From Escherichia coli (GTDB taxonomy: Bacteria > Pseudomonadota > Gammaproteobacteria > Enterobacterales > Enterobacteriaceae), in the NCBI RefSeq assembly GCF_001677475.2, contig NZ_CP015229.1: 64,000 bases of DNA. One strand, 5' to 3'. The position numbers were made by a program. Of this stretch, positions 24,001-27,000 are shown piece by piece (the first letter of the stretch is position 1; each line of letters begins with the position of its first letter).

Positions 24001-27000
24001 AAGTGAGTAATGATGAAAATCCATACCACAGAGGCGCTCATGAAGGCTGAAATCAGCCGTAGAAGTCTGATGAAAACCTCCGCACTTGGCAGTCTCGCGC
24101 TGGCAAGCAGTGCTTTCACTCTGCCATTTTCCCAAATGGTCCGAGCGGCAGAGACACCGGTAGAAGAGAAAGCGGTCTGGAGTTCCTGCACCGTTAACTG
24201 CGGGAGCCGCTGTCTGTTACGTTTGCATGTGAAAGATGACACCATGTACTGGGTGGAGTCTGATACGACAGGTGACGACGTTTACGGTAATCATCAGGTT
24301 CGGGCATGTTTACGCGGGCGCTCTATCCGCCGACGGATGAATCATCCTGACAGGTTGAAATATCCCATGAAGCGCGTCGGCAAGCGCGGTGAAGGTAAAT
24401 TTGAACGGATAAGTTGGGACGAAGCCCTGGATACCATCAGTGATAATCTTCGGCGGATCCTAAAAGATTACGGCAATGAGGCTGTACATGTTCTCTATGG
24501 AACAGGCGTAGATGGCGGAAACATCACCAACTCAAACGTCCCGTACCGTCTGATGAACTCTTGCGGTGGTTTTCTCAGTCGCTATGGCAGCTACAGTACC
24601 GCACAGATCAGTGCCGCAATGAGTTATATGTTCGGTGCCAATGATGGCAACAGCCCGGATGATATCGCCAATACGAAGCTGGTCGTTATGTTCGGAAATA
24701 ATCCGGCAGAAACGCGGATGAGCGGCGGTGGTGTCACTTACTACGTCGAGCAAGCCCGCGAACGTTCAAACGCACGCATGATCGTCATCGACCCACGTTA
24801 TAACGACACAGCTGCCGGGCGTGAAGATGAATGGCTGCCCATTCGCCCTGGCACCGATGGCGCACTGGCCTGTGCGATTGCCTGGGTACTGATTACTGAA
24901 AACATGGTCGATCAGCCATTTCTCGACAAATATTGTGTTGGTTACGATGAAAAAACGCTGCCCGCCAACGCACCACGTAACGCGCATTATAAAGCCTATA
25001 TTCTGGGCGAAGGGCCTGACGGCATAGCTAAAACGCCGGAATGGGCAGCAAAAATCACCAGCATCCCGGCAGAAAAAATTATCCAGTTGGCACGAGAGAT
25101 CGGTTCAGCAAAACCTGCTTATATTTGTCAGGGTTGGGGGCCACAACGACATTCCAACGGCGAGCAAACGTCCCGCGCTATTGCCATGCTTTCCGTTCTC
25201 ACCGGTAACGTCGGCATAAACGGCGGCAACTCAGGTGTACGCGAAGGTAGCTGGGATCTGGGGGTAGAATGGTTCCCGATGCTCGAGAATCCTGTTAAAA
25301 CGCAGATTTCCGTCTTTACATGGACAGATGCCATCGACCATGGTACGGAAATGACCGCGACCCGTGATGGTGTTCGTGGAAAAGAAAAACTGGATGTCCC
25401 CATCAAGTTTTTATGGTGCTACGCCAGTAACACATTGATCAATCAACATGGCGACATCAATCACACCCATGAGGTGCTTCAGGATGACAGCAAGTGCGAG
25501 ATGATTGTTGGCATTGACCACTTCATGACGGCCTCGGCTAAGTATTGCGATATCCTGTTGCCCGACCTGATGCCAACAGAGCAAGAAGACCTTATCTCTC
25601 ATGAATCTGCAGGGAATATGGGCTATGTGATCCTCGCCCAACCCGCAACCTCAGCAAAATTTGAACGCAAACCCATCTACTGGATGCTGAGTGAAGTCGC
25701 CAAACGCTTAGGACCGGACGTTTATCAAACCTTTACTGAAGGTCGCAGTCAGCATGAATGGATCAAATATCTCCATGCGAAAACGAAGGAACGTAACCCT
25801 GAGATGCCCGACTACGAGGAGATGAAAACGACCGGGATCTTTAAGAAAAAATGCCCGGAAGAACACTACGTCGCTTTCCGCGCATTCCGTGAAGATCCAC
25901 AGGCAAACCCGTTGAAAACACCTTCGGGGAAAATCGAAATTTATTCTGAACGACTGGCGACGATTGCGGATACCTGGGAATTGAAAAAAGATGAAATTAT
26001 TCATCCCCTTCCTGCGTATACCCCAGGTTTTGATGGCTGGGACGATCCCCTGCGGAAAACCTATCCACTGCAGCTAACGGGCTTCCACTACAAAGCGCGT
26101 ACCCACTCCAGCTACGGCAATATTGATGTGTTACAGCAGGCCTGCCCACAAGAGGTGTGGATCAACCCCATTGATGCTCAGGCACGCGGTATCCGTCATG
26201 GCGATACCGTGCGGGTATTTAACACTAATGGAGAAATGCTGATTGCCGCAAAAGTGACTCCGCGTATTCTGCCTGGCGTTACCGCCATCGGGCAAGGTGC
26301 GTGGCTTAAAGCGGATATGTTTGGTGACCGGGTCGATCACGGCGGCAGTATCAATATTCTGACCTCTCACCGCCCTTCACCGCTGGCAAAGGGAAACCCG
26401 TCGCACAGCAATCTTGTCCAGATCGAAAAGGTTTAAGGAGTAGCCCATGACCACACAATATGGATTTTTTATCGATTCCAGCCGCTGTACTGGCTGTAAA
26501 ACCTGCGAACTGGCGTGCAAAGATTTTAAAGTTGGTTACGTATCGTTTAAAATCAATTAGATAGCCCGTCATTTCTGCGCTCACACGTCCCAACATTGAA
26601 AAACATGCAAAGCTTTGTAAGCCGATGCAAAGCTTTGTGTGTCTCACTTTTGTCCCAATACCAATCCGAATCCACCCTTTGTCATCATTGAGAAATGGCA
26701 AGGAAGAAAAGGATGTTACTGCACGATTTGACAAATCCGCCAGAGCTATCGCATACTGATCGCACTGAACAAATAAGCGGTCTCCGCACCCGATAGCTTT
26801 GCGGCTTTTTTATGCCTGCAATTTGGCATAGTTACATCCGTACAAAGGTCGGGTGGAGAGGCGTAATACAACACCCGCAAGGGGAATATGCCCAGAGCTT
26901 CTTATTTGGCTCAGTTGACACCCGACCGCCAGCTACTAACTGGCGGTTATAAACTAAACAAATAAGGAGGTCATCATGACCAGTCAACTCATCCCCGTAT

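Follow-up and report, generated by a model that had tools for sequence, protein, structure and literature searches.

The ynfEFGH-dmsD locus and its junction with phage DNA

The window analysed here is a single stretch of 64,000 nucleotides from Escherichia coli (NCBI RefSeq assembly GCF_001677475.2, contig NZ_CP015229.1), in which the first part of the ynfEFGH-dmsD operon is joined directly to a prophage. This operon encodes a selenate (and tellurate) reductase, in which YnfG connects YnfE/F to the quinol oxidase YnfH (PMC5203670; PMC12724226). Two of its genes are intact in the window. In blastn, ynfE (21526-23952, +), which encodes the 808-aa selenate reductase catalytic subunit, matches K-12 ynfE over its full length at 97.8% nucleotide identity, and ynfF (24010-26436, +, with the K-12-equivalent start at 24013) matches over 24013-26436, again the full length, at 98.9%; neither gene has an internal stop. 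The third gene is present only as a 5' fragment at 26447-26531 (+), which comprises codons 1-28 and the first base of codon 29 of ynfG, is identical to the K-12 gene at 85/85 nucleotides, and encodes the first CxxCxxCxxxC cysteine group. Similarity to K-12 ynfG in blastn (nt 1-85 at 100%) ends at 26531, and none is found from 26532. Translation across the breakpoint gives a chimeric open reading frame (ORF) of 37 codons (26447-26560, +), MTTQYGFFIDSSRCTGCKTCELACKDFK|VGYVSFKIN*, in which 28 YnfG codons are followed by nine phage-derived codons and a stop at 26558-26560; draft assemblies call this ORF as a 37-aa gene with a weak Fer4_2 match. With the K-12 genes as queries, blastn found no match to the remainder of ynfG, to ynfH, to dmsD or to clcB anywhere in the 64-kb window. 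An earlier note on this DNA, made from the sequence alone, had described a prophage inside ynfG, a normal ynfG start with a frame diverging after about codon 28 and stopping 10 codons later, intact ynfE and ynfF, and no remainder of ynfG, ynfH or dmsD in the following 37 kb. All of this is borne out, and the separation of ynfEF from ynfG'-ynfH-dmsD agrees with the published insertions of φPOC-J13, phage 75/02 and the RM10410 prophage. The composition profile showed no sharp GC step at the ynfG junction and was uninformative.

From 26532 to 64000, the DNA matches short-tailed phages of the 933W/VT2-Sakai/POCJ13 type at 94-98% nucleotide identity. On the basis of nucleotide and protein matches, this segment represents the right-hand ~37.5 kb of a ~60-kb prophage of the 933W/Sakai/POCJ13 type (Sepvirinae), and it encodes an antirepressor, a 2,806-aa LPD38/LPD5 giant protein, tail fibres, Lom, an N4-gp56-type capsid protein, a portal protein and terminase, so that the 933W/Sakai-type short-tailed virion module is present in the window. 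By analogy, the visible end would be the int-distal end of the temperate phage and would correspond to the b-region side of lambda. At position 64000 the window breaks off within the lysis/terminase region, and the prophage would continue past this point toward lysis, possibly stx, Q, replication, immunity and int; its relatives at the ynfG site are Stx1a-positive or stx-negative.

The bacterial attachment site (attB) was compared across three sequences, namely the unoccupied K-12 site, the window, and the junction next to int in the complete genome NZ_CP027452.1, which carries the same prophage. The sole block common to all three is TTTAAAG (26525-26531; ynfG nt 79-85), and this comparison with a phage-free ynfG, which the earlier note had proposed as the way to define the att core, thus delivers a common core of 7 bp. 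The deposited genome of Shigella phage POCJ13 ends immediately on either side of the core, one end reading ...GAGCAACAA and the other TTGGTTACG..., and from 26532 the window reads identically to the POCJ13 end sequence over the ~200 nt shown (compared by eye). Both the breakpoint at TTTAAAG and the phage side of the junction, which corresponds to the reference P' arm and terminus, are those of a φPOC-J13-type insertion. In attB, the core is flanked by an imperfect inverted repeat, CAAAGAT/ATCTTGG (6/7 complementary), of which the left half (26518-26524, read from the alignments) is a candidate core-type integrase (Int) binding site and the right half lies on the displaced 3' side; a core flanked in this way is typical of lambda-type sites. 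The ynfG breakpoint is a site-specific attachment junction, and by analogy with lambda-type sites we infer that the 7 bp are the overlap region within which strand exchange took place. The paralogue dmsB, whose product is 94% identical to YnfG, reads TACAAAG at the site equivalent to TTTAAAG and also differs in its flanks, and this difference may explain why the phage chooses ynfG over its close paralogue. A tRNA-type integration target was rejected, as no tRNA was found anywhere in the 64-kb window.

The first ~190 bp past the core (26532-26725) form the P' arm of the phage attachment site (attP), as delimited by the POCJ13 end comparison and by the start of matches to Shiga toxin (Stx) phages. 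Since Stx phages that have a different integrase do not begin to match the window before ~26725 (query_from 186-189), this P' arm belongs to the ynfG-targeting integrase module. A repeat scan of the arm found ATGCAAAGCTTTGT twice in the same orientation, at 26605-26618 and, with a 20-bp spacing, at 26625-26638 (+). The two copies are candidate arm-type Int binding sites; as RNA, they are predicted to form a 17-bp hairpin with a free energy of -23.1 kcal/mol (z -5.4). Each of these repeats (TGCAAAGCTTTGTAAG, 26606-26621) also resembles the attB left half-site plus core (TGCAAAGATTTTAAAG, 26516-26531) at 13/16 positions, a likeness that is unexpected if different Int domains read arm-type and core-type sites and that may be coincidence. 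Further on, in the stretch that separates the host operon from the first gene of the phage, lies a long hairpin followed by the T-run CTTTTTTAT (26737-26812, +; -26.9 kcal/mol, z -2.9), which is terminator-like. Either hairpin could end transcripts that arrive from ynfEF in the integrated state or, when the phage is circular, from int, and a sib-like role, by analogy, is possible for them. The best sigma-70-like match in the junction region (26728-26757, +; TTGACA, an 18-nt spacer and CATACT, 10/12) falls within the left arm of the terminator-like hairpin; any transcript that comes from upstream would include the whole hairpin, which would be missing from transcripts starting at this putative promoter, and the latter could reach sRNA-Xcc1 and antA. 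The first phage gene, antA, is AntA/AntB-type antirepressor-like (26976-27605, +; phrog_377, E 1.8e-90; Pfam AntA and P22_AR_C), is co-directional with ynfEF, and starts 445 bp downstream of the ynfG junction. Directly upstream of it is a full-length match to the Rfam model sRNA-Xcc1 (RF02221; 26847-26935, +), which scores 69.1 bits against a gathering score of 53. A study of APSE phages likewise found sRNA-Xcc1 upstream of an ORF6N-domain gene, and the element may be a recurring leader of antirepressor-like phage genes, not a free-standing small RNA.

The other junction in related genomes

Two complete genomes with a prophage at the same site were examined, NZ_CP027452.1, which carries an Stx1a prophage, and that of the O104:H4 strain 2011C-3493 (NC_018658.1), in which the prophage is stx-negative. 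In both, the order is ynfE, ynfF, ynfG'(1-28), ~60 kb of prophage and int, followed by 52 bp, TTTAAAG, ynfG from codon 29 onward (29-205), ynfH, dmsD and clcB. The 3' part of ynfG, ynfH and dmsD are intact in both, and the genes missing from the window are thus displaced, not deleted, in these genomes. The int-side junction of the strain studied here, if built as in its relatives, would read ...GTGGTGAGCAACAAC-TTTAAAG-ATCTTGGCCCGGAAG..., followed by intact ynfH and dmsD. The O104:H4 prophage occupies about 2,525,757-2,585,657 (~60 kb), is 933W-like, and has no stx annotated between Q and the SASA esterase gene, the Stx2a phage of the outbreak lineage lying elsewhere; it shares the ynfG' junction with the window prophage, would share the int-side junction and the integrase family with it as well, and is ~92% identical to it over 75% of the compared region. 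All listed O104:H4 genomes have a split ynfG. In the related prophage of NZ_CP027452.1, an excisionase-like helix-turn-helix ORF (MDSHSITLKEACQFLKISRPTAVNWIRTGRLQATRK...; retrieved locus L002, 11355-11726, -) overlaps the start of int; its RefSeq annotation is limited to a partial pseudogene of 66-96 nt.

Across 5,426 complete E. coli genomes, the window-type junction was found in 81 (at least 80% coverage) and the int-side junction in 88, the O104:H4 outbreak strains included. The junction in the window is identical (601/601 nt) in many independent complete genomes, and draft assemblies that carry a rare marker gene of the window have the same speG...ynfF-ynfG'(37 aa)-antA arrangement, with contigs that end inside the prophage.

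At the int-side junction of the relatives, the phage contributes only seven codons, MVSNNFK, which begin with GTG and are fused to D29, and no Shine-Dalgarno-like sequence was found upstream of this GTG in the junction sequence of the relative. The resulting 184-aa product is without C14, C17, C20 and C24, the first cysteine group. In DmsB-type four-cluster ferredoxins, two [4Fe-4S] clusters lose ligands when the first cysteine group is missing, and the product of the ynfG 3' fragment should therefore be non-functional. It matches TIGR02951 (DmsB family) only from position 25 of 161 and scores 222 bits against a cut-off of 214.1, and because it barely exceeds this cut-off it is treated as a complete subunit in some genomes and as a pseudogene in others: RefSeq/PGAP annotates a complete 184-aa 'DMSO/selenate family reductase complex B subunit' in NC_018658.1 (retrieved locus L006, 2853-3407) and an N-terminally truncated pseudogene in NZ_CP027452.1 (L002, 9744-10283). 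No full-length product is kept through a duplicated segment at either end, the window side having a 37-aa stub and the int side of the relatives seven non-homologous codons. On the evidence of these sequences, ynfG is truly broken. The earlier note had expected YnfEFGH activity to be lost unless the phage supplies a replacement 3' end at the other junction; the expected loss stands as a probable outcome for the lysogen, and the proviso falls away, since the other junction in the relatives carries native ynfG from codon 29 onward and no phage-borne substitute. The idea of a phage-supplied replacement gene end was rejected, as the cysteine group is restored at neither junction.

Integration without repair, its alternatives and its predicted consequences

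These observations are almost certainly explained by the integration of a temperate phage of the 933W/φPOC-J13 type, through tyrosine-integrase site-specific recombination, at an attB in ynfG, whereby the operon is cut and ynfG is not rebuilt. Strand exchange would have occurred within TTTAAAG (ynfG nt 79-85), and integration would leave ynfE, ynfF and a 37-codon ynfG stub on the window side and shift ynfG codons 29-205, ynfH and dmsD by ~60 kb, to a place immediately behind the int gene of the phage. The YnfG ferredoxin subunit would thereby lose its first cysteine group, and ynfH and dmsD would be cut off from the ynfE promoter. Several points weigh against this account. The int-proximal junction of the strain itself lies beyond the window, and the displaced ynfG-ynfH-dmsD segment is placed there by reference to relatives. 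The overlap, arm-site and terminator roles are modelled on lambda and P22. In the antA region the identity to POCJ13 is only ~83%, so that the window phage would be a mosaic relative and not φPOC-J13 itself, and the published phage-side primer for φPOC-J13 is absent from the window when up to 3 mismatches are allowed, from which it follows that the two phages differ in the antA region. Finally, no contiguous attP of the exact ynfG module was found in virion-derived phage records, and only the P22-like relative has one. The published host primer S1742_up matches the window at 26207-26231 with 1 mismatch.

The same layout could be read as a regulatory switch ('active lysogeny'), in which precise excision restores ynfG when selenate/dimethyl sulfoxide (DMSO) reductase is needed, or in which FNR-driven ynfEF transcription into the antirepressor-like gene couples induction to anaerobiosis. 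Both ynfG fragments are undecayed, the 5' part being unchanged from K-12 and the 3' part in O104:H4 being equal to K-12 at the protein level after the seven phage codons, so precise excision across the 7-bp core would recreate an intact gene; however, recent acquisition explains undecayed fragments equally well. The co-directional antA lies close to the junction, but the two strong hairpins, one with a T-run, stand between them and make host read-through into antA unlikely. In addition, the layout is what any lambda-like attP gives, and no report of such behaviour was found in the papers searched. We consider this reading improbable. Still less credit can be given to the possibility that the divergence in ynfG is a sequencing or assembly artefact (a chimeric join), which the earlier note had held to be fatal to its own reading, or that the phage brought about a deletion of the operon remainder. 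The other prophage end does lie outside the window, the int-side junctions slightly outnumber the window-type ones, and some genomes are rearranged. Against this, 81 independent complete genomes, as well as several drafts from the same lineage, have the junction unchanged, from which we conclude that the divergence is not an artefact; the breakpoint coincides to the base with the POCJ13 genome terminus, NZ_CP027452.1 and NC_018658.1 retain an intact 3' part together with ynfH and dmsD, and the junction was confirmed by PCR in the literature (PMC4193171). Gene-restoring integration, in which the phage carries the displaced part of ynfG and a full-length YnfG is re-formed at one junction (as for 21/e14 at icd and for tRNA phages), is scarcely credible, because, although the phage sequence to the left of the int-side core is like attB at 20/29 positions (counted by eye), the ynfG frame is open from an in-frame GTG and PGAP annotates a 184-aa B subunit in O104:H4, the ORF at the window junction stops after nine foreign codons and the int-side product has only MVSNNFK before codon 29, no group-I cysteine, a profile match beginning late in the model, a start codon lacking a Shine-Dalgarno-like sequence and a merely marginal score.

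Integration without repair leads to predictions for respiration. A split ynfG predicts loss of the YnfG electron-transfer subunit in ~1.5% of complete E. coli genomes, O104:H4 included, and the expression of ynfH and dmsD may drop in the same ~1.5%. Given its identity to YnfG, DmsB might substitute for the lost subunit, and Lubitz and Weiner (2003) reportedly observed subunit exchange between the Dms and Ynf systems. The displacement of dmsD is one consequence that is possibly broader than the earlier note proposed. DmsD, encoded by the last gene of the ynfEFGH-dmsD operon, is a twin-arginine translocation (Tat) chaperone for DmsABC as well as for YnfE/F and is essential for DmsABC maturation (PMC12096835). 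In the lysogen, ynfH and dmsD would lie ~60 kb from the FNR-dependent ynfE promoter and directly behind int. In the relatives, the 52 bp that separate int from the core showed no terminator-like element, and a promoter scan of the int-core gap region gave only weak matches, no more than chance expects. It is a speculative and rather unlikely extension that lysogens, including Stx1-producing Shigella and O104:H4, have, through the displacement of dmsD, an altered DMSO/S-oxide respiration whose level is set by transcription from the int region, with precise excision acting as a reversible whole-operon switch.

Proposed integrase ancestry, related phages and the prophage body

In the relatives, int encodes a tyrosine recombinase of 387 aa that is 76% identical to Int of the P22-like Salmonella phage BIS08P22 (387 aa; Lederbergvirus). 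Identity is uneven along the protein, reaching 88% in residues 1-60, which by analogy with lambda Int would be the arm-binding domain, and 95-97% elsewhere in the catalytic domain, and falling to 53% in residues 61-150 and 54% in residues 271-305. The latter two segments are presumably the regions that set core specificity in lambda and HK022, such regions of Int having reportedly been defined for these phages by Dorgai, Yagil and Weisberg (1995). On the DNA side, the P' arm from ~+40 to +125 (window ~26575-26645) is nearly identical to the BIS08P22 attP, including both copies of ATGCAAAGC(T/C)TTG, which, from the lambda and P22 parallels, are putative arm-type Int sites, whereas the core DNA of the two modules is unrelated, the P22-like core having a tRNA T-arm-like sequence; P22 itself uses thrW. 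A third copy, GATGCAAAG, in the P arm (position -70) was rejected as a site, being not conserved in P22-like attP, and it may be a chance occurrence. Between the two modules, residues 1-60 (the putative arm-binding domain, with Int taken from relatives) and the paired P' arm repeats are conserved, and the cores differ. We infer a P22-type heterobivalent Int in which arm recognition would have been kept while core recognition diverged, the module being retargeted from a tRNA gene to ynfG; divergence in both the core-binding regions and the core DNA would explain how a tRNA-targeting module came to hit a protein-coding gene. The likeness of the ynfG-module integrase to P22 Int was not found in the papers searched. 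P22 leaves its tRNA target intact, unlike the ynfG module, which breaks its target gene. Phage 21 and e14 at icd likewise use a tyrosine integrase to enter a protein-coding gene. There, icd stays functional because the element brings a replacement 3' end of its own, whereas the ynfG module supplies no functional substitute.

Insertion of an Stx-type phage at ynfG is already known, and the window is a documented, ordinary case in which such a phage disrupts the host gene that holds its attachment site. PCR showed in 2014 that the Stx1a phage φPOC-J13 inserts site-specifically, in S. flexneri at S1742 and in MG1655 lysogens at ynfG (PMC4193171), and the ynfG site is also used by S. sonnei phage 75/02 (PMC5447701), by the Stx1a prophage of E. 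coli RM10410 (PMC10562709), and by an stx1a prophage of a clinical Shiga toxin-producing E. coli in the STECode preprint (bioRxiv 2024.05.07.593058). φPOC-J13 (KJ603229 / NC_025434, Diegovirus, Sepvirinae), 75/02 Stx and RM10410 have the same attB (ynfG = S1742) and the same core as the window phage, and the φPOC-J13 group shares its 933W-type late region, with a best match of 94% identity over 78% of 24.5 kb. The window phage differs from φPOC-J13 in having a 2.9-kb segment (27637-30493; a group II intron and an orphan ORF) in place of ea-type genes, and an insertion sequence (IS) element of the IS21 family in its late region. Other Stx prophages interrupt their host gene without repair at wrbA (933W), btsS-mlrA (yehV; CP-933V), ompW and dusA (PMC10562709). 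The wrbA/yehV/ompW/dusA prophages are of the same phage type and share the window sequence from ~26725, but they have different integrase/att modules, the first ~190 bp past the core being specific to the ynfG module. In E. coli and Shigella, ynfG is an established integration hotspot, used by Stx1-converting phages and by related phages that lack stx, and a split ynfG therefore serves as a useful marker of this prophage type. To this, the present analysis makes small additions, namely the core at base level, the lack of gene repair, the possible basis for sparing dmsB, a proposed P22-type ancestry for the integrase module, and the inconsistent annotation of the 3' fragment.

Several further features were observed along the prophage and the host flank. 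The closest complete E. coli genome covers 78% of the phage part at 94% identity, and none reaches 80% coverage. A group II intron (27637-~29451, +) starts with GTGTG at 27637, matches the Rfam models D1-D4 and V-VI, and encodes a reverse transcriptase/maturase at 28053-29270 (TIGR04416, 438 bits). Its insertion point lies 4 nt past a terminator-like hairpin, AAAGGAGCTTCGGCTCCTTTTTT, located downstream of antA, a placement reminiscent of class C bacterial introns, which tend to target terminators. The interval from the intron to the giant LPD38 gene holds an AT-rich orphan gene of ~32% GC (29951-30454, +; 167 aa), for which only 6 clusters were found among 5.8 billion proteins and which has related DNA (88% identity) in 4/5,426 complete E. 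coli genomes. Its product has no PHROG or NCBIfam match and a weak match to Pfam Peptidase_C58 (YopT-like; E = 3e-4); C26, C30, H120 and D134 are invariant, which suggests, from sequence, a papain-like Cys-His-Asp enzyme. Its AlphaFold prediction has a pLDDT (predicted local distance difference test) of 47.8, too low for a fold test. The IS21-family element (41936-44344, +), with istA at 42029-43528 and istB at 43525-44280, lies inside a small hypothetical gene of the late region, its boundaries being set at the homology break against two related prophages. On the other side of the operon, the host flank is ordinary E. coli backbone (mar locus, eamA, ydeE, dgcZ, ydeI ... speG, ynfC, ynfD), in which the K-12 Qin cryptic prophage is absent (16200-16218) and ydfJ (14928-16295; full length, 455 aa) directly abuts the ynfP/rspB region.

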